Counted from the first letter of the stretch, positions 31,232-53,259 are shown. The stretch is 64,000 bases of DNA from Pedobacter sp. (GCA_014377775.1 JACMOW010000248.1:16966-80965); one strand, 5' to 3'. Notes: generated by a model from the sequence alone, not told the origin. Made by a program: numbers and translations.

Positions 31232-34200
31232 ATGTATAATTTTACAACGAATAAGAAATTTTGTTTACTGCTAGTATTCTTACTTACAAGTAGCTTAACC
31301 ATAAAGGCCCAAGAAGTTGATTTGGTAAAAACTTCAACGGATACTACTACGGTTAAAGCAAATATCAAAACGCTTAGGGGCGAAAAGATAAGCGGAACAA
31401 TAATAGACGGAAACACCAATAAACCCTTAGTAGGAATAAATATTACGGTTACTAGATTTAGCGCTGCAATAACGGATGATAGAGGTAATTTCACCATTAC
31501 GGTACCCGACTATAACGCGTCGGTAATCATTTCTGGTGCTGGTTTTCAAACTAAAGTAATACCCGTATACAAGGGTAGAGTGGTAAGTACAAGATTATAT
31601 CCGCAAAGCTATACTTCTTTGTACAATGAAGTTACAACTCCTTTGGGAACACAAACGCAAGCACGCTCTATACCATCTATTAGTAATGTAGGTTTGCAAG
31701 ATAGCTGGGCAAGTAATTCTGAAAGCCCTAGCACTTATTTTCAAGGTAAAATGGCAGGAGTAAATGTTGTTAGAAGGTCAGGTACACCTGGTACCGGAGC
31801 TGATGTAATGATCCGTGGTTTTAATTCTTTGTACGGCACAAATCAGCCTTTGTATATTGTTGACGGAATGATTTATGATGCAAATGCTTATGGTTTTTCA
31901 TTAACAAAAGCACATATCAATAATCCACTTCAATTTATAGATGTTAAAGATATTGAAAACATAAGTACTATAAAAGATGCGGCGATTGCAGCTATGTATG
32001 GTGCTAAAGCGGCAAATGGTATCGTACTAATTACCACTACTCGCGCAAAAGAGTTGGCTACAAACATTGATTTTTCTGCATATAGTGGGTTTAACGTTAA
32101 GCCTAAAAATTTGCCAGTTATGAATGCCGCTGATTATCGACTTTACCTTTCCGATATTTTGAAAAGCCAAGGTTTAAGTAATGCTCAAATTGCTGCAAAG
32201 CCGTACATGAATGATAATATTTCTAATCCTGATTATTTTAAATACCACAATGAAACCGATTGGCAAAAGCAAGTGTTAAGAAACAGCTTTGACCAAAATT
32301 ATTTCTTAAAAGTAACTGGTGGAGATAACATTGCAAAATATGCACTTTCTGCCGCCTATTCCAAAGATAAAAGCGTTATCGATAGTACAGATAATATCAA
32401 ATATAGTACTCGATTTAATAGTGATTTAAATTTGACGAAAAAATTAACAGGTACAACTAGTCTTTCTTTTACTTATACCGAACAACGTTTAAAAGATCAA
32501 GGCATTTCGCCGGCTACTAACCCATTATTTTTAGCGCTTGTTAAATCGCCCTTTATGGCCAGAAACGAAGTTAATGCAACAGGTGCCATTTCCCCGAATT
32601 TAGCCGATTATGATACCCTTCAAGTAAGTAACCCTAGGGCATTGATAGAAAATGGATTAAACCTAAAAAAAGCATATCGTTTTTTTGGTAATATCAATTT
32701 TGATTACACGTTCAGTAAAGCCTTTAAATTATCGAATCTCACTGGTGTAGCCTATGATAAATTTCAAGAAACGTTATTCATTCCTAGAAAGGGAGTTACC
32801 AATGATACACTTTCTAATTATGTAGGCGACAGTAGATTAGGTAGTCAGGTAGGTCGATTTTTTAATGTCTTTAACGATTTAAGATTAACATTCGACAAAT
32901 CACTTGGAAAGTATAGTAAAATTCACGCTGTAATTGGGACTCGTTTTTCACAGAGTGATAGTGAGCAAGATTTTGCATTAGGGTTTAACTCTGCTACCGA
33001 CGAGTTAATTAGTATTGGAAATAGTAATGCTGCATTCAGAACGTTTGGAGGTGATATTGGTAGGTGGCGCAGTTTAAATAATTATTTATCTGCCAACTAT
33101 AGTTATTCCGATAAATATCTTGTTAATTTTTCGATGGCGGTTGATGGTTCTTCTAGGTATGGAAATAAACGCAATCAAGGTTTCCTGAATTTTGAGGATG
33201 GATTAAGAATAAATGGTAATCGATTTGCTGTTTTGCCTGCCATAGGTGCTGCATGGATAATCTCATCAGAAGAGTTTATGCGAAATCTTAACCGTGTAGA
33301 TTTGTTGAAATTGAGAGTTAGCTATGGCTTAACAGGAAATGATGATATTGGTAATTACACGGCTCGTAAGTATTATACTTCTCAAAATATATTAGGAATA
33401 AGAGGGGTTATTGTGGGTAATTATGCTAATCCAAATTTGCAATGGGAAACCATGCATAAGTTTAACACAGGTATTGATGGTTCATTTTTTGGAGAACGTT
33501 TAAGCATAAGTTTAGATTACTGGATCAACAGCACTAAGGACATGTTAACCTATCAATTGGTTAATTCTTTAGCAGGTACGGCATCTTACCTCGCTAACAA
33601 TGGTGGTATGCAAACCAATGGTTTAGATCTTGCCATAAATGGTAGATTACTGAATACACAACTGAAATGGGATGTTGGCTTAACATTAGGGACAGCTGAG
33701 AATAAAATAACCGGTTTACCAAATGGAAATAGTGTAGTAACTACTTATGCTGATGGCGCTTACTTAACTCAATTAGGGCAATCTGCCAACCAATTTTATG
33801 GTTATAAAACCAATGGTGTATTTACAACAGATGCAGAAGCTACTACCGCAGGCTTATCTATCCGTAATGATTTAGGTGTATTGGTTCCATTTGCAGGTGG
33901 AGATATTAGATTTTCCGATTTAAATGGCGATAAAGTAATCGATGATGCAGATAGAACCGTAATAGGCAATCCAAATCCAGATGTATTTGGAAGTTTCAAT
34001 AATACATTTACCTATAAAAATTGGAGTTTGAATGCATTATTCACTTTTGTGAGTGGAAATGATATTTATAACTACACCAGAGCGCAATTAGAATCAGGTA
34101 GCACATATTACAATCAAACCGATTTAATTCGAAACAGATGGAGAGGAAATGGCCAAGTTACAGATATCCCAAAGGCAAGTTTTGGCGACCCAATGGGTAA

Positions 34201-34465
34201 TGCTAGGTTTTCTGATCGTTGGATTGAAGATGGTTCTTATCTTCGCTTGCGAACCGTTAGTTTAACTTATAATGTGCCCCTAAAATCGAAATCATTAAAG
34301 TATGCAAAGGTTTATGCAACTGCTAATAATGTGTTTACACTAACCAATTACCTTGGTTACGATCCAGAGTTTGCAGGATCAGGTGGTCTATTCACACAAG
34401 GTGTAGATATTACGCTCGAACCTCAGTTTAGGTCGGTTCAGTTAGGTGTTAGAATTGGATTATAA
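31232..34465 (+). CDS. SusC/RagA TonB-dependent transporter (second copy)
   Basis: IKDAAIAAMYGAKAANGIVLITT, NPNLQWET, IGNPNPD, IEDGSYLRL. Confidence 0.95.
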   Translation: MYNFTTNKKFCLLLVFLLTSSLTIKAQEVDLVKTSTDTTTVKANIKTLRGEKISGTIIDGNTNKPLVGINITVTRFSAAITDDRGNFTITVPDYNASVIISGAGFQTKVIPVYKGRVVSTRLYPQSYTSLYNEVTTPLGTQTQARSIPSISNVGLQDSWASNSESPSTYFQGKMAGVNVVRRSGTPGTGADVMIRGFNSLYGTNQPLYIVDGMIYDANAYGFSLTKAHINNPLQFIDVKDIENISTIKDAAIAAMYGAKAANGIVLITTTRAKELATNIDFSAYSGFNVKPKNLPVMNAADYRLYLSDILKSQGLSNAQIAAKPYMNDNISNPDYFKYHNETDWQKQVLRNSFDQNYFLKVTGGDNIAKYALSAAYSKDKSVIDSTDNIKYSTRFNSDLNLTKKLTGTTSLSFTYTEQRLKDQGISPATNPLFLALVKSPFMARNEVNATGAISPNLADYDTLQVSNPRALIENGLNLKKAYRFFGNINFDYTFSKAFKLSNLTGVAYDKFQETLFIPRKGVTNDTLSNYVGDSRLGSQVGRFFNVFNDLRLTFDKSLGKYSKIHAVIGTRFSQSDSEQDFALGFNSATDELISIGNSNAAFRTFGGDIGRWRSLNNYLSANYSYSDKYLVNFSMAVDGSSRYGNKRNQGFLNFEDGLRINGNRFAVLPAIGAAWIISSEEFMRNLNRVDLLKLRVSYGLTGNDDIGNYTARKYYTSQNILGIRGVIVGNYANPNLQWETMHKFNTGIDGSFFGERLSISLDYWINSTKDMLTYQLVNSLAGTASYLANNGGMQTNGLDLAINGRLLNTQLKWDVGLTLGTAENKITGLPNGNSVVTTYADGAYLTQLGQSANQFYGYKTNGVFTTDAEATTAGLSIRNDLGVLVPFAGGDIRFSDLNGDKVIDDADRTVIGNPNPDVFGSFNNTFTYKNWSLNALFTFVSGNDIYNYTRAQLESGSTYYNQTDLIRNRWRGNGQVTDIPKASFGDPMGNARFSDRWIEDGSYLRLRTVSLTYNVPLKSKSLKYAKVYATANNVFTLTNYLGYDPEFAGSGGLFTQGVDITLEPQFRSVQLGVRIGL

Positions 34466-34483
34466 TTTTAGAAAAATATACTC

Positions 34484-36220
34484 ATGAAGATGAATTTAAA
34501 TAAAAGAATTGCTGCACTTTTGATGTTAAGTGTTTTAATGATAGGATCTTGGTCGTGTAAGAAAATGTTCGATGTAGCTCCAGAAGATAAATTGGATAGC
34601 AGCAATGCCTACAAAAACGTAACCGATGCAGATGCAGCTGTAATGGGCATCTATGGTCAGTTTTTACAATTACATAAACTCTATATCCTTCAAAATGAAT
34701 TGCGTGGAGATTTAGTAGATGTAACGGCAGGTGCAAGTTTAGAATTAAAGGAGCTATCAGCCCATACCGCAACAAAAACTAATCCCTATGTAGACCCACG
34801 ACCCTATTACAATGTGATTATTAATTGTAACGATGCACTTAAAAACTTTAAGGCTATGCTTGATGATAAGAGAATGAGTGTAGACGATTATCAAAAACAT
34901 TTTTCTGATATAGGTGCGCTACGTAGCTGGATTTATTTACAAGTGGGTATTCAATATGGAAGTGTTCCCTACATTACTGAGGCGTATGAAACCGTAGATG
35001 ACCTTAAAAACCTCGGCAATCTTCCCCGTTTAACATTTGATCAATTATTGGATAAGTTAATTGAATTTACTGAGAAATTGCCCTATAAAAGTCTTTATGG
35101 TTATCCTACCGGAAACTCACTGTTGGTTACAATAGATGGAAATTCGACTCAGAAATTATTTATTACCAAGCCATTTCTTTTGGGCGATTTGTACTTGTGG
35201 AAAGGTAATTACTTAAAAGCGGCTGAAAATTATGCATTGGTAATGAATGGAGAAAATAACAATTCAAATGGCAATATTTATTTTAATTATTACAAGATAA
35301 ATAATTTTGTTGACAATACAGGTTATACTCGCATGGTTGTTTCTTATGGTCGATATCAAGATGAAAGTTCATTAGTGAATACTCCAGATGACGGATGGAG
35401 AGGTATATTTGGCTTGCCAACTACAAGCAACTCATGGAACTCAGAATGGATGTGGGCAATCCCTTATAACCCTGCTTATAAACCTGTAAATCCAATGATA
35501 AACTTAACTAGCCCGGTAAAAGGATATCAGATTAAGCCATCGCAGGTTGCAATTGATCTTTGGGAAGATCAAAATCAGTATAGTGGTATTCCTTATGATG
35601 CCCGTGGAAAGCTTTCTTACAATAGCTCATTTTCAGGAAATGCAATTACCAAATTAACCGATAATGGGGGTAAATGGGGAATATATCGTGCAGGATTATT
35701 ACACTTACGTTTTTCAGAAGCTGCTAACCGCGATGGGCAAACTAAATTAGGCTGGGCATTTTTAAATACAGGCTTAATCCCTACCTATTATGTTGGAACT
35801 CTTGTAGCAGGTGCAAGAACACCTGCAACCGAAGCTGAATTAAACACCATGATTACACCGTATCCGAAAGAATCGCCATATTATTTTGATGCGCGTAAAA
35901 ATGGAACCGATCTGTCTGCAATTTGGTATCGTAATGCAGGTGTTAGAGGTAGAGCAGGTGTAACGGCTATTGATATTTCTTATCAAACCGATATGTTAGG
36001 CTTAGAAAATAAATTGCTAGATGAAGCTGCATTAGAATTAGCTTTTGAAGGAAACCGATGGCCAGATCTAGTTCGCACAGCACGCAGACAAGGTAATCCT
36101 GCATTTTTAGCAGATCGTATTTATCAGAAATTATTGAAATCTGGAAATCCAGATGCCGCCGCAACGCGAACTAAATTAATGAACCCAGCAAATTGGTACT
36201 TGCCATTTGATTGGAAATAA
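34484..36220 (+). CDS. SusD/RagB family lipoprotein (second copy)
   Basis: SWSC lipobox; ELRGDL; YGSVPY; LELAFEGNRWPDL; WYLP. Confidence 0.9.
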   Translation: MKMNLNKRIAALLMLSVLMIGSWSCKKMFDVAPEDKLDSSNAYKNVTDADAAVMGIYGQFLQLHKLYILQNELRGDLVDVTAGASLELKELSAHTATKTNPYVDPRPYYNVIINCNDALKNFKAMLDDKRMSVDDYQKHFSDIGALRSWIYLQVGIQYGSVPYITEAYETVDDLKNLGNLPRLTFDQLLDKLIEFTEKLPYKSLYGYPTGNSLLVTIDGNSTQKLFITKPFLLGDLYLWKGNYLKAAENYALVMNGENNNSNGNIYFNYYKINNFVDNTGYTRMVVSYGRYQDESSLVNTPDDGWRGIFGLPTTSNSWNSEWMWAIPYNPAYKPVNPMINLTSPVKGYQIKPSQVAIDLWEDQNQYSGIPYDARGKLSYNSSFSGNAITKLTDNGGKWGIYRAGLLHLRFSEAANRDGQTKLGWAFLNTGLIPTYYVGTLVAGARTPATEAELNTMITPYPKESPYYFDARKNGTDLSAIWYRNAGVRGRAGVTAIDISYQTDMLGLENKLLDEAALELAFEGNRWPDLVRTARRQGNPAFLADRIYQKLLKSGNPDAAATRTKLMNPANWYLPFDWK

Positions 36221-36292
36221 TAATATTTAAATTGTACGCTTTTTAATTGCTTGAAGGTTTATTTTCAGGTAATTTCTCATTATATCAAAGAC

Positions 36293-37303
36293 ATGGAATA
36301 TCATATCACTATCAATCCAAATTCAAGTATAGCTAAACATTCGCAAATTGCAGAAAGTATGAGGGCTGATATAGAGGCAGGTAGATTGCAAGTTGGTGTT
36401 CAATTACCGTCCATAAATGAATTTAGTAAGAATTACAAAGTAGCTAGAGATACGATCGAAAAGGCATATAACCTGTTGAAAAAGGAAGGTTATGTTATAG
36501 GTGTTCCAGGAAAGGGGAACTACGTAGCCAGTGGATGTGAAAAAAGCCTAAAAATTTTGATGATCTTAAATAAAATGAGCTCATATAAAAAAGAAATCTA
36601 CGAAGCATTTATCGAAACTTTAGGAGAAAGTACCAAAGTAGACCTACAGATACATCATTATAATATTAATCTTTTTAAGGAGATTATTGAGGAGAACAAA
36701 GGAAAATATCACTATTATGTGGTAATGCCTTATTTTTTTCATCATACACCTCAAGAAGATTATATTAAAATCTTAAATGAAATACCTAGTTCTTCTTTGG
36801 TGGTTTTAGATAGGGAAGTGGTTTTAGATAAAGAAATCATCAATGTATATCAAGACTTCGAGAAGGATATTTTAGATGTATTGTTGCTTGAAAGTGATAT
36901 CTTGGGAAGATATAATTGTATTACGCTAATTTTCCCAAAAGAAAGTCATCACCCATTAGAGATTATAAATGGTGTAGAGGCTTTTTGTTTAGCCAAGAAA
37001 AAGCAGTTTAAATTGGTTTCCGATGTCACTAAAATCATCCCTTCAAAAGGAACAGCTTACATTACGCTAACCGAAAATGAATTGGCAACTTTAGTGAAAA
37101 AAATAAGAAATACGGATTTAAAATTAGGAGAAGCAGTAGGTATTCTTTCATTTAATGAAACCATTTTAAAAGAGTTATTAGGAATTACTGTTGTAAGTAC
37201 AAATTTTTCGGCGATGGGTAAAACGGCAGCAGAAATGATCTTAACGAAAAATTACTCTCGTATCAAAAATGAGTTCAACTTTATTAAAAGAGAGTCGCTT
37301 TAA
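36293..37303 (+). CDS. GntR-family regulator with C-terminal periplasmic-binding-protein-like (LacI-type) sensor
   Basis: LPSINEFS..VARDTIEKAY.LLKKEG..PGKG winged HTH; C-terminal GILSFNET..ITVVSTNF..MGKTAA. ATG 36293 preferred over TTG 36251. Confidence 0.9.
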   Translation: MEYHITINPNSSIAKHSQIAESMRADIEAGRLQVGVQLPSINEFSKNYKVARDTIEKAYNLLKKEGYVIGVPGKGNYVASGCEKSLKILMILNKMSSYKKEIYEAFIETLGESTKVDLQIHHYNINLFKEIIEENKGKYHYYVVMPYFFHHTPQEDYIKILNEIPSSSLVVLDREVVLDKEIINVYQDFEKDILDVLLLESDILGRYNCITLIFPKESHHPLEIINGVEAFCLAKKKQFKLVSDVTKIIPSKGTAYITLTENELATLVKKIRNTDLKLGEAVGILSFNETILKELLGITVVSTNFSAMGKTAAEMILTKNYSRIKNEFNFIKRESL

Positions 37304-37943: not shown

Positions 37944-39251
37944 ATGAGTAAAGTATTTACAATAACCGAAGGGCTTGAAAATTTAGGTGCACTGCGAACG
38001 GGCGGTCAGGGTTCGGTATATAAAGGCAAGCGAATAGGTTCAATTTTTTCAGCAGTAAAACTCATTCCTACACCCATCTCTAAAGAGAATGAGGGCGATA
38101 AAAATTATCGAAATTTTCAAAATGAAGTGAGCAAGCTACAAAAAGTAAACGAAAATCCTAGTCCCAATGTAGTTAAAATGCTCAGCTTTGGAATTACTGA
38201 AAGTGGTTCATTTCCGTTTATAGAGATGGAATTTATTGATGGGCCAGACCTAAGCGAACTACTTAAACCACCGCATGAGAAAATATTTACGTTAAAAGAA
38301 TTGGTAAAAGTGGCCGGACAATTGGCTGCAGCCCTTGCGCATTGCCATAACGTAGGTGTTAAACATGGCGATATCAAGAGCAATAATGTTAAATATAACA
38401 TTCATACCGGTAATTATGTGTTGCTCGATTTTGGTTTAGCCATTATGAGCGAAGAACAGCGCCGTAGTAGTATTCGTCATGCAGGAGCCATTGAGTTTAT
38501 GGCGCCAGAACAAAACGAAGGTAAAATGCTTTTGCAAACCGATATTTACAGCTATGGTATCATCTTATATGAACTTTTAGCAGGGCAAGTCCCTTTTCCT
38601 TTAAACAGAAATAGCGATACGGAAAGAAATAATGTTAGGGTTGGGCACATGGAAAATGACCTCCCAAATATGATGGAACTGCGTAAAACGAATTTGCCAG
38701 GTACCTGGCTCGAGGAACAAAAAAAGCAGGAAATGATGGCTCCAGATTGGTTAATAGCACTTATTGATAAATGCCTGCAAAAAGACCCAAAGGATAGATT
38801 TTCAAATGGAATGGTACTACATGAGTGCTTTATAGAAAGTAGCCTGTCAGCAAAACCACTCCATGCCAATAAACTGGATGATACTACATTGAAAGCTGAA
38901 AATAAAGCGTTGACTCAAAAGCTTTTGGAGATAGAAAGCCAGAAAAATCCGGGTATTGTACTTTCTCATTTTGCATTTACAACAATAGTGATCACATTGC
39001 TCGCGTTAATTGGATATTCGGGGTATTCTGCATTCAAAACAAGTGAACCACAAGGCCAAAGTCAGATAATTGCAATAGATTCGCTACCAGTACAAACAGA
39101 TACGGGTACCTTTGAAGGAAAAAAACAAAAAGAACCTGCTATAATCCGAAGGGTTGAAGCGGATAGCATGAGAAAATCTGAGGAAGAAAAGGAAGCTGAT
39201 ACCACAGAGGATCTAACACCTGATAGCACTATACAACCACCATCTTTTTAA
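37944..39251 (+). CDS. Hanks-type Ser/Thr protein kinase A, single TM, acidic C-terminal tail, no PASTA
   Basis: GGQGSVY Gly loop, AVK, HGDIKSNN catalytic loop, DFG, MAPE, DIYSYG; TM FAFTTIVITLLALIGY. ATG 37944 matches the paralog start MSKVFTI. Confidence 0.92.
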   Translation: MSKVFTITEGLENLGALRTGGQGSVYKGKRIGSIFSAVKLIPTPISKENEGDKNYRNFQNEVSKLQKVNENPSPNVVKMLSFGITESGSFPFIEMEFIDGPDLSELLKPPHEKIFTLKELVKVAGQLAAALAHCHNVGVKHGDIKSNNVKYNIHTGNYVLLDFGLAIMSEEQRRSSIRHAGAIEFMAPEQNEGKMLLQTDIYSYGIILYELLAGQVPFPLNRNSDTERNNVRVGHMENDLPNMMELRKTNLPGTWLEEQKKQEMMAPDWLIALIDKCLQKDPKDRFSNGMVLHECFIESSLSAKPLHANKLDDTTLKAENKALTQKLLEIESQKNPGIVLSHFAFTTIVITLLALIGYSGYSAFKTSEPQGQSQIIAIDSLPVQTDTGTFEGKKQKEPAIIRRVEADSMRKSEEEKEADTTEDLTPDSTIQPPSF

Positions 39252-39268: not shown

Positions 39269-40219
39269 ATGGAAATAAAATCAAGTTTTTGGCAAAGGAT
39301 TGGTATTCAAGACTGGTTTTTAACAGATGAAACCAATAGCATAAACGGTAAAACACCTCCGCTTACACCCGAAACAGTGTATAGCTACATTATAGACAAG
39401 TTTAAAGCATCTATAAAGGAACTCTCTTTTGCCGGGCGCGTAGTTTTTTACCACGAATTTATCATCAGTTTTAACGATGAAGATTATAGAGAATTTATAG
39501 AAAATAAACAGGGTATATTTGGGCTAATTGTTCAAGAAACGGTTAAAAAATTTTATGAGATTTTAAAAGAACATCGCCTTGCTGGAAAAAAAGTAGAACC
39601 CTCAGGTTCAAAATGGGTATTTCGTTTAGTTTCACACCCAGATTACGTACGTGGCGATAAAGGATTTATTGGCAAGTTGCTGCCAGATAACAACCAAAAA
39701 GCTGAAAACCTTCGTGTAACATTTATTCCACGCCAAACAGGCATAGCACAAACATTTGACGTGAATAACGATATATTAAAAGGTTTTACCTACTATAGCG
39801 ATGGCTATATGGAAATTCCTTACGAAGAACAGCTCGAGTATGTGGAAGGTAATACTTCAACTACGGATCAGCACTTGCTAGGCCGATTGGAAACAATTAT
39901 CCCCGATAAGCAATATTCTGGCAAAAAAGTAGAATACCTAATAAAAAATGCAGATATTATCGTTTCTGGTACCGATGAAACCCGCGAAGAACCTAATATC
40001 TTTAAAGTACCTTCTGAATGGGTTAATTCGCCACACCTACACATCCGACATAATAAAACGGATGGTAAATTCTACATCGCTTCGTTTGGAGAACTCACCA
40101 CCCTAAACGAAAATATACTTACACAAAGTAATGTAAATTCACCCCAATGGACCGAACTTCCAATCAACTCTAGAATCCTCTTGAATGGGATTGTTGGGTT
40201 AAACTTATTTAAATCTTAA
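39269..40219 (+). CDS. FhaA-like protein: DUF3662-like N-terminus and degenerate C-terminal FHA domain
   Basis: VFYHEFIISFNDEDY recalls the FhaA N-terminal domain. C-terminal IIVSG...WVNSPHLHIRH..FYIASFG.TTLNE has FHA strand spacing but lacks GR and SRxH. Confidence 0.55.
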   Translation: MEIKSSFWQRIGIQDWFLTDETNSINGKTPPLTPETVYSYIIDKFKASIKELSFAGRVVFYHEFIISFNDEDYREFIENKQGIFGLIVQETVKKFYEILKEHRLAGKKVEPSGSKWVFRLVSHPDYVRGDKGFIGKLLPDNNQKAENLRVTFIPRQTGIAQTFDVNNDILKGFTYYSDGYMEIPYEEQLEYVEGNTSTTDQHLLGRLETIIPDKQYSGKKVEYLIKNADIIVSGTDETREEPNIFKVPSEWVNSPHLHIRHNKTDGKFYIASFGELTTLNENILTQSNVNSPQWTELPINSRILLNGIVGLNLFKS

Positions 40220-40225: not shown

Positions 40226-40324
40226 ATGTCGCAACTATTATCTATAGGACTATTATTAATTGTTGTGCTTTTGCTGGCAACTCATTTTAAAGACATTAAA
40301 AATTCTGGAAATAAAAATGGATAA
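40226..40324 (+). CDS. Unannotated 32-aa single-pass membrane peptide
   Basis: MSQLLSIGLLLIVVLLLATHFKDIKNSGNKNG*; starts 6 nt after the upstream stop and its end overlaps the PP2C ATG (aATGGATAA). Confidence 0.6.
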   Translation: MSQLLSIGLLLIVVLLLATHFKDIKNSGNKNG

Positions 40325-41699
40325 GCACTTTTACGGACTCACAGATACTGGAAAAACCAGAGATAATAATGAGGATACCTTTATTGCTGAATCATTTGGT
40401 ACAAAACAAATGATTTTGGCAGCTGTTATTGATGGAGTGGGTGGTTATCATGGAGGCGAAGTGGCCGCTGCAATAACTAAAGAGGAGGTACTAAGAAAGT
40501 TTTCTAGCCAGCCAACAGAAATCATTCCACAAATGATCATTGCTTTTAAAGAAGCAAATAGCGTTATTCTTTCCAGAAAAGAGTCGGAAAAGGAACATGC
40601 CGAAATGGCTTGCGTAGCTACACTTGTTTGTGCAGATATTGAAAACAACCAATTTTACTATGCACACGTGGGCGATACTAGATTGTATCTGCTGCGAGAT
40701 GGTTCGCTAATTAAGATCTCGAAAGATCATTCTTTTGTTGGGTTCCTAGAAGACTCAGGAAGAATTAATGAAGACACAGCCATGAAACATCCCAAGCGCA
40801 ATGAAATTAATAAAGCCATAGGTTTTAATGATGCCATTGATGCAGACGATAGCTATATCGAAACAGGCCAATCGCCTTTTTTACCTGGAGATTTACTGTT
40901 GTTATGCAGCGACGGATTAACAGATATGGTAGATAAAAAAGATATCACCACCATCATTACCCAACCAGGCACCCTTATACAGAAAGCAGACCATTTGGTT
41001 GCGCTAGCAAATGAAAACGGAGGCCGAGATAACATCACTGTAGTATTGGTTAAGAATGATAAAACCCCACAAAAAGTAAAACACGTTACTTATCATTCAT
41101 CACCGCATGTTGAAGATACAGTTATAGCCACAACAGAACGGGAACAAATAGCGGTAACTATAGAAAAAAAAAGGAATTTTGGCTTGATGGCTCTAGCCGT
41201 TTCATGTGTAATATTATTAGTAAGTACGATTGTGCTTAACCTTCAAAATCAAAAAAAACAACCGCATCAACTGGTCGTTGCTCAGCCGATTAAACAAGCA
41301 CGTAATAGCCAAGAGCAGTTATTGCAAGATGCGATTGATCATGTTTTTGGCGATACATTGGTACTGTCTGATACGATTTTTAAAAGTCCGATTATCATTA
41401 CCGATACTATCCGCATTAGAAAAGATACCTTGTTTATTTTTGCAAAAGGTTTGGTGCTGCAGGCCCATAATACTTACAAGGGTGCTGCATTAACCACGTC
41501 TGCTCAAAGTAAAATTGTAAGCATTGATAGCTTACAATTTAAAGATTTTACAACGGTCATTGCGGTAAAAAATGTAGGCATAAAGTTCAATAATGTAAGT
41601 TTTATTAATTGCGGGCTACCAATACAAAACAATTATAATTTAAGGGGTATGATCACACCTTTTGCTAAACCAATGAATATAAAAAAGGGAGAAAATTAA
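40317..41699 (+). CDS. PP2C/PPM Ser/Thr phosphatase, membrane-anchored (PstP/PrpC-like), with extracytoplasmic domain
   Basis: TDTGKTRDNNED, DGVGG, AHVGDTR, DHS, LLLCSDGL, GGRDNITVVL; TM GLMALAVSCVILLVSTIVL; C-terminal ~130-aa beta-rich domain. Confidence 0.92.
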   Translation: MDKHFYGLTDTGKTRDNNEDTFIAESFGTKQMILAAVIDGVGGYHGGEVAAAITKEEVLRKFSSQPTEIIPQMIIAFKEANSVILSRKESEKEHAEMACVATLVCADIENNQFYYAHVGDTRLYLLRDGSLIKISKDHSFVGFLEDSGRINEDTAMKHPKRNEINKAIGFNDAIDADDSYIETGQSPFLPGDLLLLCSDGLTDMVDKKDITTIITQPGTLIQKADHLVALANENGGRDNITVVLVKNDKTPQKVKHVTYHSSPHVEDTVIATTEREQIAVTIEKKRNFGLMALAVSCVILLVSTIVLNLQNQKKQPHQLVVAQPIKQARNSQEQLLQDAIDHVFGDTLVLSDTIFKSPIIITDTIRIRKDTLFIFAKGLVLQAHNTYKGAALTTSAQSKIVSIDSLQFKDFTTVIAVKNVGIKFNNVSFINCGLPIQNNYNLRGMITPFAKPMNIKKGEN

Positions 41700-41700
41700 G

Positions 41701-44700
41701 ATGATAACATTTGGTAATAGAGGAACTGAACGTATTTTTTTATTGCTCATCACTATTTTTATTGCTCTTTTTTGCTGTCGCTTGTATACGGTAATGCAAG
41801 TTAAATTTGTGGATGTTGACTCACGAATAAAAGGTGGTACAATGGTAAACCTAAATGCCAAAAACCCTGCGGCCAACCTCCGAAATTTGTTAGAAAAGGG
41901 ATATTATTTTGATGACCCTAAAGATATAGACCTTATTGAAGCCACAGTAGCAAGTGCAGATAAAACGCAGAAAAAACTAGATAATATTGGTGAACTCAAT
42001 AAACGTAGGTATTATTTATTAGCAGACAAAGCCTTCGAAAAAGGAGGCAAATCATTTAAAGCAAGGGTAACCGCTTCGAGGTCGCTGTTAGGTTATACTG
42101 GCGATGATTTGATGAAGTTTGAGCAAGAAAGGAAAGATCCACAAAAGCACTTGGCACAACTTAACCTAGGTTTGGGCGAGAATGCCATTAATGGTATAAT
42201 ATTGGAGCAAGGACGGCCAATACCCGGCGTTTTGGTAAGATTGGATATGATTTTACCGCTAACAGATGAGCCGATTAGTAATAATCTTACCGCTTACGTA
42301 CGTACAGATGCTCAAGGTAAATTTAGTTTCCAAAAACTACCGAATGGTAAAGCGTTTAAAGTACTTCCTTTAAAGCCTGGTTATCAATTTGGTCCGTCAA
42401 AAGGTGTACAAAGCTTAACAGATGATGTATCTTTTTTCTTTTACCAGACCCCACATACCATAAAACTTTTCTCTACCCGCGATTTCAGTATCCTAAAAAA
42501 GGAAAAGTCTCTCATTATTCGTACTCCAGCTGAATTTAACAATTGGTTTTTGCTAGTTTTTGCTAGTTTAATCATGGGTTTCTTCATTATTCACTTTGTT
42601 TTATGTTGGAAGTTTAGCGATGTAGATCAAATGCTACTTCCAATGGTGATGTTGTTAACGGGTATTTCATTTATTACACTGTTTAGTTTGCAAGATCCTT
42701 TGAGAGATCGATTCTTAGCAAAAGATTCATTACTGTATTTATTGATGGGGTTTGGCGGGATGCTAACCATACTATTGCTCAAGCTACGTCGATTCAATAC
42801 CGACACCTGGGTTTATCGTATGTTGATTTTTAAAAATCTCCGGTCTGCGGCAAACGGATGGCCATGGGTAGCTTTGGCGATTGCTCTACTTATTTTAACA
42901 TTAGTGTTTGGAACAGGACCAGAAGGCAGTGGCGTAAAAGTAAATCTGTTCGGATTTCAGCCGAGTGAAGTGGTTAAATACCTTATTATTTTCTTTTTAG
43001 CTGGTTTTTTTGCTGTAAACGAAAAATTAATCAGCGAGTATACCAGTTGGAGCAAAAGGTGGTCGTTTTTCTCCTTTGCGCTCATTGCCATTTTATTTAC
43101 ACTCATGCTTTTTTTAGTGTTGGGCGATTTAGGTCCAGCCATGGTGGTGTGTTTCACCTTCATTACCTTATTTTCATTTTCGAGGGGTGATTTCGCATTC
43201 ATGGCGGGCTCGGTAATCTTATTCGTATTGGTTTTATGGATTTTTAACAGTGTTTGGTTGGCAGTTGGGATAGTGGTATTGCTGATGCTTTTTCAACGCA
43301 AGCAGCTTAGCGAATCGGCTATAATGGTACTCGTAATTATGGCTGCATTTTTAACCATTGATCAAATTCCTTATTTAGATAAAATTTTTGCTGGTCCAGT
43401 ACAACGTTTGGGCGATCGTAAATCTATTTGGCAAAACCCTTGGAATAACGAAGTGTTTGGCGGTGATCAAGTAGCAAATGGACTTTGGGCCATGTCTACA
43501 GGAGGTGCAGCCGGGCAAGGCGTAGGTGAGGGTTTTGCTAAAACCATTCCCGAAGCACATACCGATATGATTTTGCCATCCATGGGTGAAGAATTTGGTT
43601 TAACAGGGATGTTGTGTATTTTCCTTTTATTCCTTTTATACCTGCATCGATCTATCATTATTGGACGAAGAACGGGATCGCCTTTCTTATTTTATCTGAG
43701 TGCAGGAATAGGTATATCAACCTTTGTGCAATTTTTGCTTATTGCCGGTGGATCTACAGGTGCGTTGCCTTTGTCGGGGGTTTCGTTGCCTTTTCAAAGT
43801 TATGGTGGTTCATCATTGGTGCTAAATTTATTGGCTGCCGGCTTTTTGCTTTCGGTTTCGAAAGTGCGAGGAACTGCCGTGCAAATGGAATACATTGCCA
43901 AACAGCAGGATAAAAATTTAGTTCCTGCAATGGTAGCTGCTTGTTTGGGAATCCTATTGTTGGGTGTAAATGTAACCGGGTATATCCTTAATAATAAGAA
44001 ATGGGTAGTACAACCTGCCTTGGTAGCAGACCGAAGCGGAGCACGCATGTTTAGCTATAATCCGCGGATTGCGATATTGATGAGTAGACTAAAAGCAGGA
44101 TCTTTACACGATCGTAAGGGTGTTTTACTGGCAACCAGTAATGCGGATAGCGTAAGGGCCCAACGATTTAAGCTCATTGGAGCAGGAATTAATAGTTATA
44201 ACTTAGATTCTGCAGTGCATCAGCGCTTGGATAGGTTCTATCCTTTTGAGGAGCAAATGTTTTTTTGGACAGGTGATGCCAATTCTGGAGTTTTTAATGG
44301 TAGTGTTAATGGTTATTTTGCTGAGTATGAGCATGCTGCTGAGTTACGGGGTTTTGAGCTTCCAACTAAGAGTTATCCTGTAATTGCAAGTCGTTATAGT
44401 GAGAATAGATTTTTAGCAAGAGGCATAAAAGAGATGACAGTAGTTAAAAAGGATTATGGGGCATTGGCGCCATTACTGTTATCGGGGATTACCAGCAAAG
44501 AAGTGGAAGAGTTTAAAAAACGAAATCGAGATGTACGATTAACAATGGATGCGGGTTTACAAACTAGAATTCAAAAATCAATTGCCCAAGACACTTCTTT
44601 AAACGATAATAGAGTATCAGTAGTGATTATGCAATCTAATACTGGTGATGTTTTGGCCTCGGCCGTGTATCCGCTTCCACCAATTCATGATTGGGAAAAG

Positions 44701-45636
44701 TTAACGATGACTGTTGCCGAACAAAATCAACTCTCGCCATGGATAACTACTTCAGATCTTGGATTTACCCATTTTACACAGCCAGGATCTACTGCTAAAT
44801 TGATAACGGCAATGGCTTCATTTAATAAGTTAGGTTTGGAAGCAGCCAATAAAAAATTCCCCGTAGCCGCATGGGAACGAATTCGTACCAAAGGAATAGA
44901 ACCAGATGAAACGGGTCTGATCAATTTAGAAAGAGCAGTAGTAAAATCAAATAATGTGTATTTCATTAAACTAGCTAACCAAGAACAATTACAAGAACAA
45001 ATGGGAGATCTGTATTTAAAAACAGGCATGTTTTTACATGGAGTAGGTGGTTATTATTACAATAAACCTAATGAAAATAGCAAACAAGAAGAAAAGTGGA
45101 AAGAATTATGGCGAAAAACAGAATTTAATACCAAACCAAAATATGATCCTAACAATATCCGTAAAACGAGAGCCAAAGGCATCTCTGGCATGTCGTGGGG
45201 CCAAGGAGAATTAATTGCTACGCCAGCTGCGGTAGCGCGTGTAGCTATGGGTATTGCCAATAATGGTAAGATGATAGCCAACAGGTTTGTACTAAAGGTG
45301 AACGATAAACCTGAGCCCGTTAAAGATGGTACGAAATTAGTTAATGATCCTGCGTACGCTTCACTCATGCGCGCTTACATGATTAAGCAAAGTGAGTTGA
45401 AAACTAGTACCCTTGGTATAGCTGTAGCTGGTAAAACGGGTACGCCAGAACGAATTTGGAAAAAACAGCAAATTAACGATGGCTGGTATGTTTTTTTTAC
45501 CGGTAATATAGTGGTATGTGTGCGAATTGAAGCCACCAAAGGTTCATCGGATGCAGTTAAATTAGCTGGGAAGCACGTGGTTCCCTTATTACTCGAAGGT
45601 GGTTACATCAAAATCATTACTAAAGATAAAATTTGA
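41701..45636 (+). CDS. SEDS (RodA/FtsW/SpoVE) glycosyltransferase fused to a class B penicillin-binding transpeptidase, with an extra N-terminal extracytoplasmic domain
   Basis: SEDS motifs FQPSEVVK, GDLG, IPEAHTD, GVSLPFQSYGGSS across many TMs. bPBP motifs GSLHDRKG, LTMDAGLQ, QPGSTAK (SxxK), KSNN (SxN), WGQG, GKTGT (KTG). Confidence 0.92.
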   Translation: MITFGNRGTERIFLLLITIFIALFCCRLYTVMQVKFVDVDSRIKGGTMVNLNAKNPAANLRNLLEKGYYFDDPKDIDLIEATVASADKTQKKLDNIGELNKRRYYLLADKAFEKGGKSFKARVTASRSLLGYTGDDLMKFEQERKDPQKHLAQLNLGLGENAINGIILEQGRPIPGVLVRLDMILPLTDEPISNNLTAYVRTDAQGKFSFQKLPNGKAFKVLPLKPGYQFGPSKGVQSLTDDVSFFFYQTPHTIKLFSTRDFSILKKEKSLIIRTPAEFNNWFLLVFASLIMGFFIIHFVLCWKFSDVDQMLLPMVMLLTGISFITLFSLQDPLRDRFLAKDSLLYLLMGFGGMLTILLLKLRRFNTDTWVYRMLIFKNLRSAANGWPWVALAIALLILTLVFGTGPEGSGVKVNLFGFQPSEVVKYLIIFFLAGFFAVNEKLISEYTSWSKRWSFFSFALIAILFTLMLFLVLGDLGPAMVVCFTFITLFSFSRGDFAFMAGSVILFVLVLWIFNSVWLAVGIVVLLMLFQRKQLSESAIMVLVIMAAFLTIDQIPYLDKIFAGPVQRLGDRKSIWQNPWNNEVFGGDQVANGLWAMSTGGAAGQGVGEGFAKTIPEAHTDMILPSMGEEFGLTGMLCIFLLFLLYLHRSIIIGRRTGSPFLFYLSAGIGISTFVQFLLIAGGSTGALPLSGVSLPFQSYGGSSLVLNLLAAGFLLSVSKVRGTAVQMEYIAKQQDKNLVPAMVAACLGILLLGVNVTGYILNNKKWVVQPALVADRSGARMFSYNPRIAILMSRLKAGSLHDRKGVLLATSNADSVRAQRFKLIGAGINSYNLDSAVHQRLDRFYPFEEQMFFWTGDANSGVFNGSVNGYFAEYEHAAELRGFELPTKSYPVIASRYSENRFLARGIKEMTVVKKDYGALAPLLLSGITSKEVEEFKKRNRDVRLTMDAGLQTRIQKSIAQDTSLNDNRVSVVIMQSNTGDVLASAVYPLPPIHDWEKLTMTVAEQNQLSPWITTSDLGFTHFTQPGSTAKLITAMASFNKLGLEAANKKFPVAAWERIRTKGIEPDETGLINLERAVVKSNNVYFIKLANQEQLQEQMGDLYLKTGMFLHGVGGYYYNKPNENSKQEEKWKELWRKTEFNTKPKYDPNNIRKTRAKGISGMSWGQGELIATPAAVARVAMGIANNGKMIANRFVLKVNDKPEPVKDGTKLVNDPAYASLMRAYMIKQSELKTSTLGIAVAGKTGTPERIWKKQQINDGWYVFFTGNIVVCVRIEATKGSSDAVKLAGKHVVPLLLEGGYIKIITKDKI

Positions 45637-45637: not shown

Positions 45638-46432
45638 ATGATATTTAATTTATTTAAAAGCGGAACAGAAGAACGTCCAGATGATGTGAAAAGCATACGT
45701 CATGCATTGCTCCATTTTATTAAACAGGAATTGCAAAAAGCAGAGGGTGGAGAAGGTGCCAATATTAAAGGATTATGCGTTTATATGAACTGCGATCCGA
45801 AAGAAAGACACATTTATGAAGCAGCTGTTTATGTAGACGAACCAAATAAGTTAAAGGCCGAAATACAAAGAATATGTGATGATTATGCATTAGACTTGCC
45901 CTTTAATTGGACATTGAGCATTATTTTTGATGAAGACATTCCATCCGAAGCTGCGGTAATGTCTAATCTGAGTGCTGCTTTTTTTATAAAAACAAATAAA
46001 CATTTCGTAAAATTAACCGCTACGGCGTATTTGCAGGCGCTTAGTGGCGAAACGCTAAAGCCAAGCTATACGCTGACCTCCGAAGGTGGGAAATATAACA
46101 TTGGTAGAGATGCCAAAGCCCAATCAGATGAAGGATACTTTCGAACCAATCATATTGCATTTCCCTCAACCAGTAATAACGACAGTAATAAATACATTAG
46201 TAGGCAGCATGCGCACATTGAATGGAACCATTCAACTGCTAAGTTTATGATTTTTGCAGACGAGGGTGGTATACCCCCACGCAACAAAATAAAACTTAGA
46301 TCGGCACTTACAGAAAAAATAACAAAGCTCCATTCAGCGCAAATTGGACATGAGTTGGAAGAAGGCGATCAAATTATTTTAGGGGAATCGGTAGTATTAG
46401 CATTTAGTTATCAGGAATTTGAAAATGAGTAA
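45638..46432 (+). CDS. FHA domain protein
   Basis: NIGR...ISRQHAHI...RN...LEEGDQIILG canonical FHA layout; ATG at 45638 lies one base after the SEDS-PBP stop. Confidence 0.85.
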   Translation: MIFNLFKSGTEERPDDVKSIRHALLHFIKQELQKAEGGEGANIKGLCVYMNCDPKERHIYEAAVYVDEPNKLKAEIQRICDDYALDLPFNWTLSIIFDEDIPSEAAVMSNLSAAFFIKTNKHFVKLTATAYLQALSGETLKPSYTLTSEGGKYNIGRDAKAQSDEGYFRTNHIAFPSTSNNDSNKYISRQHAHIEWNHSTAKFMIFADEGGIPPRNKIKLRSALTEKITKLHSAQIGHELEEGDQIILGESVVLAFSYQEFENE

Positions 46433-47687
46433 GGTATTTACAATCGCAGACGGACTTCAAAATCTTGGCGCCTTAAAAACAGGGGGTCAAGGTTCGGTGT
46501 ATAAAGGGAAAAGGATGGGTGCAATTTATTCGGCAATTAAACTAATGCCTACACCTATACACAAAGAAGATGAATCTGACAAAAATTATCGGAATTTTAA
46601 GAATGAAGTAACGAAACTCCAAAAAGTAAATGAAAACCCAAGTCCGAATGTAGTAAAAATTATGAGCTGGGGCATTACCGATAGTGGCTCCTTCCCATAT
46701 ATAGAAATGGAATATATAGAGGGGCATGATCTTTCTGAACTTTTACAGCCCCCGCATCAACAAGCCTTCGCCATAAAGGAGTTAGTTAAAGTTGCCGATC
46801 AGCTGGCTAGTGCCATTGCACATTGTCATCAATTTGGCGTAAAGCATGGCGATATCAAGAGTAATAATGTAAAGTACAATGTACATACAGGTAATTATGT
46901 GTTGCTCGATTTTGGTTTGGCCATTATGAGCGAAGAGCAGCGTAGAACCAGTATCCGCCATGCGGGAGCCATTGAATTTATGGCGCCAGAACAACATGAG
47001 GGCAAAATGCTTTTACAAACAGACATTTATAGCTACGGAATTATTTTATATGAACTTTTAGCTGGTAGGGTGCCGTTTCCTTTAAATGGGGATGGAGATA
47101 CTGGTCGTAATTCGGTAATGCTAGGCCACATGGAAGGTAAAATTCCAGATGCCATTTCCTTAAGGAAAAGAAATCTAGAAGGTACGTTGTCAAAAGAAGC
47201 CTTAGATACCGAGCTTCAAGTACCGGCTTGGCTACTCACTGTAATCTATAAATGCCTTAAGAAAGATCCAAAAGAAAGGTATGCCGATGGGATGGAACTA
47301 GCACGCGCCATAGCTGGTGGAATAGTTCCTAACGTTCAATTTGCTCCATTGGTAAACAAACCACCTATGGTTAGGTTAACAGATGGAGATGGGATACGTT
47401 TATCGAAAAAAGCCTTAATCGCTTTGTTGGTTGGGATAACGCTAATAACGAGCTTCCTTTCTTACCAGTTTTTACCCAAGGAAAAAGTGGTAGTAGGTAA
47501 TACGAAAGCCTTTGAACCACCTTTTTTATTTTATAACAATAAGTATTTAGCGCGGATACAGAAAGAAAGGGAAGATAGCCTTGAAATTGTAAAACTCAGG
47601 CTCTGGGAAAAAGAGAGGATTGCAAATGAGATAAGTAAACAAGAAGAAAAGAAAAAAAAGCGAAAAAAATTCTTGGGTATATTTTGA
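46425..47687 (+). CDS. Hanks-type Ser/Thr protein kinase B, single TM, basic C-terminal tail, no PASTA
   Basis: GGQGSVY, AIK, HGDIKSNN, DFG, MAPE; TM ALIALLVGITLITSFLSY; ends EEKKKKRKKFLGIF. Start overlaps the FHA stop (ATGAGTAA). Confidence 0.92.
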   Translation: MSKVFTIADGLQNLGALKTGGQGSVYKGKRMGAIYSAIKLMPTPIHKEDESDKNYRNFKNEVTKLQKVNENPSPNVVKIMSWGITDSGSFPYIEMEYIEGHDLSELLQPPHQQAFAIKELVKVADQLASAIAHCHQFGVKHGDIKSNNVKYNVHTGNYVLLDFGLAIMSEEQRRTSIRHAGAIEFMAPEQHEGKMLLQTDIYSYGIILYELLAGRVPFPLNGDGDTGRNSVMLGHMEGKIPDAISLRKRNLEGTLSKEALDTELQVPAWLLTVIYKCLKKDPKERYADGMELARAIAGGIVPNVQFAPLVNKPPMVRLTDGDGIRLSKKALIALLVGITLITSFLSYQFLPKEKVVVGNTKAFEPPFLFYNNKYLARIQKEREDSLEIVKLRLWEKERIANEISKQEEKKKKRKKFLGIF

Positions 47688-49000: not shown

Positions 49001-49623
49001 CGGTGTGCGCCTTAAAGCTTTCCAGCATCTGATGCATCACATCATCAAAATGCAGTTACAATTCAAAATAACGCATTGGCAAATGGTGCAGTTGGCGTTA
49101 TCATGTGTACAGCAACAAATACAAGTCGTGGTTTAATAAATACCAGGAGCAGTGTTAGTATGCTCAATCAAAAAGGAAAAATTGTATCATCTTCTACCTT
49201 TCCTTTTGCTAAAACAAAGATAGTGGGTACTGTAAGTAATTTCGTTTTTGCCACTATTTTTACGCAAGCAGGGAAAGTCCTAACCGCTGTTGTAGCATTG
49301 CTTAAAAAAGGAGTGTCACAATCTTTTACTACCAATTTTAGGCTTAATTCGACTTATGAAACCACGTATGTCGATTTTAATACTTTTAATATAGCTGGTA
49401 AAATAGAGGGAACAGATTCGAAATTAAAAATGGAATACTTAGTGCATAGTGCTCATTTAGATCTCTTAGGTGTTGGAACTGTAGTGAAGGCGACTTGATA
49501 TATAATGGTGCGCATGATAATGCTTCTGGTGTTTCGAGTTTATTACAGATTACCAAAATATATCAAGGTTTAAAAGAAAAGCCTAAACGATCTATCCTTA
49601 TTTTAATTTTTGCAAAGAAATAA
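49001..49623 (+). pseudogene. M28 aminopeptidase pseudogene (internal fragment)
   Basis: In-frame TAA at 49013; NIAGKIEGTD..LK.EYLVHSAHLD; frameshift near 49489, then GDLIYNGAHDNASGVSSLL..KPKRSIL to a stop at 49621-49623. Confidence 0.85.
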
Positions 49624-52167: not shown

Positions 52168-53259
52168 ATGCAAGCAATTTTAGGGGTATTCTTTCATTTT
52201 GTCGGAGGCTTTGCTTCTGGTAGTTTTTACATTCCGTATAAAAAAGTAAAGGGCTGGGCCTGGGAAAGCTACTGGATTGTGGGTGGTATCTTCTCGTGGT
52301 TAATTGTTCCACCATTGGCAGCCTATTTAACCATTCCTAATTTTGTAGACATCATTGCTAGTACAGGCGGACAAATCTTAATGCTTACCTATTTTTTTGG
52401 TGTGCTTTGGGGTATTGGTGGTTTAACTTATGGTTTAGGCGTTCGCTATCTAGGTGTTTCGCTTGGAAGTAGCATTATTTTAGGGCTTTGTATGGTTTTA
52501 GGATCAATACTTCCTTCTATTTATTTTGATGTTTTTCCGAAAGAAGGTAAAGATACATTCTCCATGTTTTTGAGTACCGATTGGGGTCGCATGGTGTTAT
52601 TGGGATTATTGATTTGTGTGCTTGGTATTATAATTTGCGGCAAAGCTGGAATGATGAAAGAAAAAGAATTGAAAGCAGAAGGAACTGACCCGCACGGTAT
52701 GGAAGTTAAAACAGAATTTAAATTCGGATTGGGTTTATTTGTAGGTATCATATCAGGTGTTTTAAGTGCTTGTTTTAATTTCGGTATTGAAGCAGGAAAA
52801 CCAATGGCCGATGCTGCTAATGAATTATGGAAAGCTGTAAACCCTAGCGAAACTGGTAACTTTTTATTCCAAAATAACGTAACCTATATTGTTGTACTTT
52901 GGGGTGGATTAACCACCAATTTTATATGGTGTATGGTACTCAATGCAAGAAATAAAACTTTTGGAGATTATACCAAACCGACAGTTCCATTGTTGAAAAA
53001 TTACATTTTCTCAGCCCTTGCGGGTACAACCTGGTTCTTGCAGTTCTTTTTCTATGGAATGGGTGAGAGTAAGATGGGCAACGGCGCAAGCTCTTGGATT
53101 TTACACATGGCCTTTATCATTTTAGTTGCAAACATGTGGGGAATCGTATTAAAAGAATGGAAAGGTGTATCTAAAAGGACATTTTACACAGTGATTTTAG
53201 GTATTTTCATCATCATTGCTTCTGTACTTATTGTAGGGTACGGTAACTCAATTAGATAG
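52168..53259 (+). CDS. rhaT: L-rhamnose/H+ symporter
   Basis: FHFVGGFASGSFYIPYKKVKGWAWESYW, LWGIGGLTYG, SSWILHM, LKEWKG. Confidence 0.93.
   Translation: MQAILGVFFHFVGGFASGSFYIPYKKVKGWAWESYWIVGGIFSWLIVPPLAAYLTIPNFVDIIASTGGQILMLTYFFGVLWGIGGLTYGLGVRYLGVSLGSSIILGLCMVLGSILPSIYFDVFPKEGKDTFSMFLSTDWGRMVLLGLLICVLGIIICGKAGMMKEKELKAEGTDPHGMEVKTEFKFGLGLFVGIISGVLSACFNFGIEAGKPMADAANELWKAVNPSETGNFLFQNNVTYIVVLWGGLTTNFIWCMVLNARNKTFGDYTKPTVPLLKNYIFSALAGTTWFLQFFFYGMGESKMGNGASSWILHMAFIILVANMWGIVLKEWKGVSKRTFYTVILGIFIIIASVLIVGYGNSIR

Follow-up and report, generated by a model that had tools for sequence, protein, structure and literature searches.

Natural fusions of a SEDS glycosyltransferase (GTase) with a class B penicillin-binding protein (bPBP) are already in print: a computational study of 2025 (PMC12516126) describes 117 such chimeras under the name 'bifunctional class B' and treats them as putatively morphogenetic. 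Its Fig. 7C presents a 1341-aa fusion of Pedobacter ginsengisoli with Ser/Thr kinase and phosphatase genes flanking it, which was read as two tandem GTase domains with no pedestal and called rare. RodA and PBP2 joined by engineering have an activity that requires D262 and is insensitive to moenomycin, and in the Rod system MreC acts on the pedestal (PMC6207328). In Corynebacterium glutamicum, RodA-PBP2b alone can support polar growth (PMC8262863), and a cluster of seven genes, fhaA-fhaB-pstP-rodA-pbpA-pknA-pknB, is conserved in Actinobacteria (PMC6554272). The present analysis deals with a SEDS-bPBP fusion gene and its neighbours in a stretch of 64,000 nucleotides from Pedobacter sp. (GCA_014377775.1 JACMOW010000248.1:16966-80965), hereafter the window. 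In view of the P. ginsengisoli description the fusion and its setting among kinase and phosphatase genes were already known; the additions are a corrected anatomy, a kinship with the RodA of pknB clusters, a cassette with non-RD kinases found in two phyla, and repeated fusions with a PP2C phosphatase.

The fusion gene probably specifies a third, accessory and dispensable peptidoglycan synthase, whose activity or location would be switched by the products of the adjoining kinase, PP2C phosphatase and FHA adaptor genes. Since the fusion gene is intact and widely conserved and lies inside a kinase/phosphatase cassette, a spare enzyme of wall synthesis under phosphorylation control is the likely reading. 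The genes of this cassette are read from one strand in the order K1, X1, PP2C, fusion, X2 and K2, the fusion being the fourth of six, with gaps of 1 nt on either side of it and an overlap between X2 and K2. The cassette, which had been missed in an earlier note on this DNA, is the best clue to how the synthase is regulated.

The open reading frame (ORF) of the fusion has no internal stop and encodes 1311 aa. PF01098 matches it in two stretches with E 2e-42 (145.8 bits, against a gathering score of 26.4) and PF00905 with E 3e-21, and a CarboxypepD_reg match (E 0.0017) stays under the Pfam cut-off. No match to PF00912 (GT51, class A PBP) was obtained with Pfam at E 0.01, the polymerase domain being of the SEDS type, and the scores of the fusion lie far under the NCBIfam cut-offs for ftsW, rodA, spoVE and mrdA (TIGR02210, TIGR02614, TIGR03423). 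Its one HTD motif is placed at residues 620-622, where D622 pairs with D262 of Escherichia coli RodA (counted on the 8tj3_B alignment), and the transpeptidase motifs STAK, SNN and KTG are found at 1030, 1083 and 1245. D622, S1030, K1033, S1083 and N1085 are kept in 120/120 sequences (the query and 119 listed homologues) and KTG in 119/120; the catalytic residues are invariant in 15 members spanning 27-80% identity, and in a distant Acidobacteriota-like clade HTD is present in 73, SxxK in 76 and KTG in 79 of 80 proteins. The earlier note had described a natural single chain of SEDS and class B PBP, no class A PBP, with an uninterrupted ORF, an N-terminal transmembrane (TM) helix, a soluble region of ~250 aa (252 aa as delimited here), a SEDS core retaining the HTD aspartate, a linker TM helix and three transpeptidase motifs. 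This description is borne out throughout, and the segments it quoted were located, GRPIPGVLVRL starting at residue 171 and VRTDAQGKFSFQKLP at residue 200.

An assembly or read-through artefact is ruled out by fused homologues, by open frames found across whole genomes and by contigs spanning the junction. Both domains are present in all 119 other listed homologues (63-80% identity, from Pedobacter and Mucilaginibacter), which answers the earlier note's question whether homologues are also fused, within a listing that covers proteins of 721-2295 aa only and cannot reveal split forms. Whole-genome searches with the junction region gave uninterrupted frames of 1170-1389 aa for 9 of 400 Bacteroidota genomes; among 36 genomes of the genus 23 had a match, with frames of 1320-1384 aa in 22 and of 896 aa in one. 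One match, in genome G360 (E 6.5e-4, 494-aa frame), was discounted as a fusion. Gap-free contigs from two other studies span the junction, namely record 12 of the sample labelled X2 (42806-45394) and record 27 of the sample labelled X4 (43713-44099), and no indel in the fusion was listed across four runs, one of which (sample X1) is possibly the source sample. The window's fusion is ~45 aa shorter than its kin, through in-frame gaps of 5, 4, 26, 4 and 6 majority columns after residues 3, 186, 194, 524 and 1266, and these look natural since the four runs list no indel. Two broken copies were seen, L043:5705-9735 (1/20 loci) and L118:7977-12266 (1/58), both frameshifted upstream of the SEDS-PBP junction. 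P0345, at first sight SEDS, bPBP and FHA in one chain, seems to result from a frameshift that lets the frame run on: its transpeptidase is cut short at the end and its linker is junk.

Table 1. Positions in the window of the fusion, its parts and the other cassette genes
Feature	Position	Strand	Basis or remark
SEDS-class B PBP fusion	41701..45636	+	1311 aa, ~15 predicted TM helices
First TM helix, residues 12-30	41734..41790	+	Hydropathy; TM1 of 12-TM actinobacterial RodA by alignment
Periplasmic insertion, residues 31-282	41791..42546	+	Conserved helical core carrying the optional beta-sandwich
Optional transthyretin/prealbumin-like (CnaB-type) beta-sandwich, residues ~158-252	42172..42456	+	VIA fold match; PF13620 in relatives
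Single SEDS GTase domain, residues 283-722	42547..43866	+	Catalytic D622 at 43564-43566
Insertion of ~50 residues, two predicted TM helices	43234..43386	+	Bacteroidia members; splits the Pfam match
bPBP TM anchor (740-758) with a reduced, putatively PbpA-like pedestal (763-945)	43918..44535	+	By-eye motif alignment; structural alignment
D,D-transpeptidase domain, S1030-x-x-K1033, S1083-x-N1085, K1245-T-G	44536..45615	+	PF00905; predicted structure
K1, membrane Ser/Thr kinase, non-RD (HGD catalytic loop)	37944..39251	+	PF00069 E 7e-39; one TM helix, short outer tail
X1, FhaA-like, FhaA_N-type N-terminus and degenerate FHA	39269..40219	+	Profile matches
PP2C (PstP-like) phosphatase with TM helix and outer tail	40317..41699	+	PF00481/PF13672
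X2, adaptor with intact FHA domain	45638..46432	+	PF00498 E 0.026; E 2.6e-5, over cut-off, in orthologue L026
K2, second membrane Ser/Thr kinase, non-RD	46425..47687	+	One TM helix, short outer tail; kinase domain 67% identical to that of K1

The composition of the cassette is maintained well beyond the window. X1, PP2C, fusion and X2 together with at least one kinase are found at 20/20 same-genus loci (20 of 24 matches fetched), where the flanking genes vary, and at 57 of 58 named loci whose flanks were long enough (80 fetched). In the distant clade, which is Acidobacteriota wherever the sources give names, the protein is fused at 80/80 loci; among the 30 with flanks, an FHA gene is present at 30, two at 27, a PP2C at 28 and a kinase at 28, and the order is FhaA-PP2C-kinase-fusion-FHA in most. 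In the window's own genome (88% complete) the cassette is the only Hanks-kinase system detected, K1 and K2 being the sole Pkinase matches above cut-off. Two stand-alone SEDS genes (FtsW and RodA by tree position) accompany the fusion in 5/5 carrier genomes checked, and the window's genome has mreC-PBP2-rodA elsewhere, on contig C103. With this query the fusion was matched in 23/36 same-genus, 0/24 other-family and 9/400 phylum genomes, and from the genus and phylum counts it is therefore not essential for the group.

Several loci show further traits of their own. A complete six-gene cassette (FHA-PP2C-kinase-kinase-fusion-FHA) lies on a 137-kb plasmid of Spirosoma oryzicola (L135; NZ_CP089545.1, 69767-80323). 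Two cassette copies of the same identity share one contig (G436:C1; L041 and L042), possibly an assembly duplicate, and genome G219 holds two divergent fusions (L030 and L033). The downstream FHA adaptors at L027:11935-13305 and L028:11979-13253 have a HEPN domain of the Swt1-like type at the N-terminus (PF18731, E 1.5e-25 and 7e-22); upstream, both loci have a LysM-lytic transglycosylase gene. A divergently oriented gene for a PBP1c-type class A PBP (L032:13059-15416; PF00912, PF00905, PF06832) adjoins the cassette of genome G127. In the Acidobacteriota-like fusions P0238, P0262, P0266, P0269, P0270 and their kin the cytoplasmic start is rich in Thr and Ser (MAVTRST-like) and is a candidate FHA-binding phosphosite.

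The non-RD character of the two kinases is general, the HGD loop being found in 110/111 kinases of the named loci and in 47/52 of the distant clade. Kinases of this kind are generally independent of activation-loop phosphorylation and may need a partner. No PASTA domain was found with Pfam or NCBIfam in K1 or K2, nor in the related kinases, and the gene set is therefore taken as a related cassette and not as a member of the pknB operon type. A conserved outer domain of 65 aa is seen in 15 aligned tails of related cassette kinases; SH3b (PF08239) was matched in 2/14 tails, with E 0.011 and 0.072, and a PDB match was not obtained, so the SH3b-like nature of these tails is a lead only. Tails of this type are carried by the kinases at L101:14801-15004, L115:14399-14602, L104:14135-14338, L133:9747-10517 and L105:7952-8704, in some followed by Sel1-like repeats; they are a possible counterpart of PASTA and are missing in the window's K1 and K2.

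For X1 itself no Pfam match was obtained. Its profile matches, along the length of the protein, FhaA_N+FHA proteins encoded at the equivalent place of distant loci (E 3.7e-5, 242 columns, probability 71%) and a Spirosoma protein annotated as FHA (E 3.5e-24). The phosphothreonine-binding G-R and S-R-x-H are absent from X1, S-R-x-H being present in 1/73 orthologues, and the aligned positions read IVSG and WVNSPH. In X2 both motifs are invariant in 18/18 and present in 72/72 orthologues. Comparison of the X1 and X2 profiles gave no significant match, and neither did the X2 profile against the PDB. The PP2C is matched by NF033484 (E 1e-62, under the cut-off) and its metal-binding Asp motifs are intact. 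Its outer tail may be a small beta-helix, as a lead only: PF12708 is weakly matched in 8/33 orthologues and not in the window's own PP2C, the Atlas value is 0.86, and the PDB gave no match.

A closer inspection of the SEDS half indicates one domain, split in Pfam by a two-TM insertion, where the published reading has two. The two PF01098 stretches correspond to consecutive model positions, 64-192 and 159-352, and therefore to the halves of a single SEDS domain. In the alignment the insertion is gapped in L027, L028, L029, L031, L032 and L033, and members without it give a single PF01098 stretch. Two tandem SEDS domains are thus ruled out by the consecutive model halves, the lone HTD and the single stretch in the insertion-free members. 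At the N-terminus, the first TM helix (aligned with the RodA of Nonomuraea, Actinomyces, Tsukamurella and Monoglobus) and the helix at residues 283-301 are TM1 and TM2 of actinobacterial/Monoglobus RodA, and the extra residues sit in place of a short loop. On this alignment the periplasmic domain is read as inserted between TM1 and TM2, where a 12-TM RodA of the actinobacterial type has its first outer loop. The earlier note's extra periplasmic domain hence stands as a soluble region on the periplasmic side, and its placement as an N-terminal addition does not.

From hydropathy and SEDS topology, with the TM helices counted backwards starting at the catalytic loop, residues 31-282 and the transpeptidase are predicted to lie on the periplasmic side. 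The AlphaFold2 model of the insertion (pLDDT 95) has a helical core into which a beta-sandwich is inserted. VIA matches the sandwich, which contains the prealbumin-like segment highlighted in the earlier note, with Z up to 8.9 (rmsd 2.2-2.6, 83-87 aligned residues), the fold being common and the matches tied, and PF13620 is above cut-off in L027 and L029. The sandwich is present in 105/143 fused representatives and in 0/80 fused ORFs of the distant clade, and is missing in L028 and L032; the core is present in 122/143 representatives. No sequence match to the core was found in Pfam, PDB sequences, the Atlas or shorter proteins (252 candidates, none at E 0.001). A possible resemblance of the core to a helix-hairpin-helix of the ComEA/GspK type found no support, with no Pfam match at E 1 in 30 proteins and no match in PDB sequences, the Atlas or shorter proteins.

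The predicted structure of the PBP part (pLDDT 96) matches class B PBPs with VIA Z of 33.6-36.5. The structural alignment begins at model residue 17-37, that is, within the first strands, and since the PBP part is matched from there onward, a reduced pedestal is present in the model. Over a region of ~185 aa a by-eye alignment pairs the pedestal motifs with those of actinobacterial PbpA and of a Monoglobus FHA-linked PBP, even though the family pedestal profile gave no score on actinobacterial PbpAs. PF03717 is seen in relatives under cut-off only, and PF21922 (PBPA_dimer) is not listed in the Pfam searches of the window protein or its relatives.

Regarding its ancestry, the fused family groups with the RodA of pknB clusters, apart from FtsW, RodA and SpoVE, in the sequence comparisons made. 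In a Nonomuraea record of 11.85 Mb the only match of the SEDS region is the rodA of a pknB-type cluster (E 6e-6). A profile of the N-half of the fused family gives 48-65 bits for five actinobacterial RodAs versus 0-32 bits for 16 FtsW/RodA/SpoVE proteins; the Monoglobus FHA-linked RodA reaches 13.6 bits on this profile, yet is highest on the C-half. A 43-row mixture-model tree (14 of 35 fusion rows omitted for speed) puts the fusions behind a 100/100 branch and FtsW/RodA/SpoVE behind a 100/99 branch, and a quick SEDS tree of 57 rows agrees. An origin from the host rodA-PBP2 or ftsW is therefore ruled out by the grouping in the SEDS tree.

A further link between phosphatase and synthase is found in chains where the two are joined. 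A PP2C domain with intact metal-binding motifs lies in frame at the N-terminus of the synthase in L028 (L028:7762-11916, + strand; a single-contig genome) and in 4/143 representatives. Three further PP2C-SEDS-bPBP proteins were found, and two triple-fusion clusters hold several full-length members from different sources. These proteins (L028, P0140, P0173, P0223, P0256 and P0292-P0294) are scattered over the family tree. The five PP2C-fused rows of the tree require five changes, each forced by well-supported branches, a pattern consistent with repeated gains, which the tree cannot tell from losses. A literature search that included few subscription papers found no paper on such a triple fusion, and the InterPro identifiers of PP2C and FHA gave 0 matches in the portion of the PMC12516126 supplement searched.

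The working of the synthase can be pictured from SEDS-bPBP biochemistry and from the gene content. D622 would polymerise lipid II and S1030 would cross-link the strands, the covalent link fixing SEDS and bPBP as a 1:1 pair. In response to a signal from outside, the membrane kinases would phosphorylate a Thr of the synthase or of a partner; X2 could then read the phospho-mark through its intact FHA domain, X1, without the phospho-binding residues, could serve as a scaffold, and the PP2C would return the system to its starting state. A protein-docking or spacer module, rather than a substitute for MreC, is the most likely role of the periplasmic insertion. The trigger may be wall stress or repair, which is a guess.

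Several observations weigh against a synthase switched in this way and against the kinship on which its comparison with pknB clusters is built. No adjacent kinase is found at the Rhodothermia-like loci L027 and L029-L032, and no PP2C at L029-L033; from these loci the synthase can therefore persist without the full set. No family-wide phospho-acceptor was found: the G-[ST]-x-x-Q motif of the cytoplasmic linker occurs in 117/119 close and 11/130 distant members, so that a linker phosphosite conserved across the family is ruled out, the motif being limited to close relatives. The window's K1 and K2 have no recognisable sensor domain. On the PDB the transpeptidase profile gives 154-160 bits for MrdA chains and 142-143 for Mycobacterium tuberculosis PbpA, while a second profile places PbpA-type proteins (116-157 bits) above the host PBP2 (110 bits); profile support for the PbpA subtype of the pedestal is accordingly mixed, and the structural match fails to separate PbpA (Z 33.7) from Pseudomonas aeruginosa PBP3 (Z 36.5). 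Finally, the SEDS tree is unrooted and thinly sampled, with only six RodAs from kinase/FHA clusters, and has a long branch to the fusions.

Three other explanations were weighed against the phosphorylation-switched accessory synthase. In the earlier note the extra domain was proposed as a possible replacement for an external activator or as a sensor. The first of these would make the protein a constitutive, phosphorylation-independent synthase whose periplasmic core packs on the pedestal in place of MreC or FtsQLB. The core is indeed kept in 122/143 fused representatives and in 52/80 distant ORFs (with a profile built on other members), it is periplasmic by TM parity, and the pedestal is where MreC acts in the Rod system (PMC6207328). 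However, the sandwich is dispensable, unfused 12-TM RodA kin function with just a short loop at the insertion site, among them RodA-PBP2b in the polar growth of C. glutamicum (PMC8262863), and the host keeps its own mreC-PBP2-rodA locus. MreC is absent from the fold-match lists of the insertion, although these were filled by the sandwich and the core was not searched alone, which leaves room for MreC. Self-activation would also leave the strict linkage with kinase, PP2C and FHA genes unexplained; a role of the extra domain as MreC replacement is unsupported, and a self-activating synthase appears unlikely.

It is rather improbable that the fusion is a sensor, or part of one, in which the kinases would learn of wall damage or beta-lactams from the periplasmic domain or from the acylated transpeptidase, synthesis being secondary. 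The repeated fusion of PP2C straight onto the synthase would suit such a role, as would the non-RD kinases and the short outer tails of the window's K1 and K2, but both catalytic sites are fully conserved, and a pure sensor would need no SEDS site; many related kinases, moreover, have a conserved outer domain of their own. The least probable of the three is a housekeeping synthase for elongation or division that backs up or replaces RodA-PBP2, with the neighbours as passengers. RodA-PBP2b driving growth alone in C. glutamicum (PMC8262863) and the putatively morphogenetic role given to such fusions in PMC12516126 speak in its favour, and yet FtsW and RodA are both retained in 5/5 genomes, 13/36 same-genus genomes give no match, the cassette stays constant while its flanks vary between loci, and a plasmid copy exists.

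The accessory synthase under phosphorylation control can be extended, tentatively and with a good deal of doubt, to a mobile, self-contained switch of wall synthesis in diderm Bacteroidota and Acidobacteriota, related to the pknB operon. In this scenario non-RD receptor kinases, many with peptidoglycan-binding SH3b-like tails, would signal through FHA adaptors to the single-chain SEDS-bPBP; PP2C would have been welded on several times independently to give trifunctional proteins, and the core would be a new fold gating the enzyme. Ser/Thr phospho-control of wall synthesis has so far been known as a theme of monoderm bacteria, and if the accessory synthase is controlled as proposed it would reach diderm bacteria of soil, peat and glacier. 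With the triple fusions the link between phosphatase and synthase is open to direct test, and natural single-chain SEDS-bPBPs suit the study of the coupling between polymerisation and cross-linking where neither an engineered linker nor MreBCD is needed.

Beyond the cassette, the window contains SusC/SusD-like polysaccharide utilisation genes (by eye) followed by a GntR-family regulator (Pfam) upstream at 29762-37303. A fragment of 140 aa at 49076-49498 resembles part of an M28 peptidase by eye and is a possible pseudogene, and rhamnose-utilisation-like transporter, aldolase/dehydrogenase and isomerase genes (by eye) lie at 52168-56812.

Among the described systems, the P. ginsengisoli chimera of PMC12516126 shares with the window's fusion the genus, the size, the chain of SEDS and transpeptidase, the flanking kinase and phosphatase genes and the coexistence with FtsI/FtsW and MrdA/RodA, and judged on genus, size and context the two are very likely orthologous. 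Unlike the published reading of that protein, the family described here has one SEDS domain with a two-TM insertion, a reduced pedestal, a periplasmic insertion and two FHA-type neighbours, and is widespread in Bacteroidota and Acidobacteriota; the two-SEDS domain reading is corrected by this reanalysis. 'FHA' has 0 occurrences in the main text of PMC12516126, and the same literature search found no paper on this family's FHA/PP2C cassette. The SEDS-PBPA_dimer-transpeptidase fusions of Coriobacteriia (~930 aa; Senegalimassilia and Adlercreutzia in PMC12516126) are likewise natural SEDS-bPBP fusions of a kinase cluster with kinase and phosphatase flanks, but are ~400 aa shorter, have a PBPA_dimer domain recognised by Pfam and belong to monoderm hosts. 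Beta-lactam-bound structures of Atopobium parvulum numbered 523-949 match the PBP model with Z 33.7-34.1 and, from their numbering and title, would be the C-terminus of a fusion of the Coriobacteriia type.

With RodA-PBP2 and FtsW-FtsI the fusion has in common the catalytic Asp, the transpeptidase motifs and the passage from the SEDS C-terminus to the bPBP TM helix, whereas it belongs to another branch of the SEDS tree, scores far under the TIGR cut-offs and has no mre or dcw context. The actinobacterial pknB cluster, whose seven genes were also seen in loci L136, L160 and L161, is matched by the cassette in 6/7 gene types: both have an FhaA-like protein, a PP2C, a SEDS protein of the 12-TM RodA type, a bPBP, a second FHA protein and one or two kinases. 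The window's cassette differs from it in the fusion of SEDS and bPBP, in a periplasmic insertion of 110-250 aa, in non-RD kinases without PASTA, in the loss of the X1 phospho-binding residues in Sphingobacteriaceae, in the gene order, and in a patchy distribution among hosts that retain MreC-PBP2-RodA.

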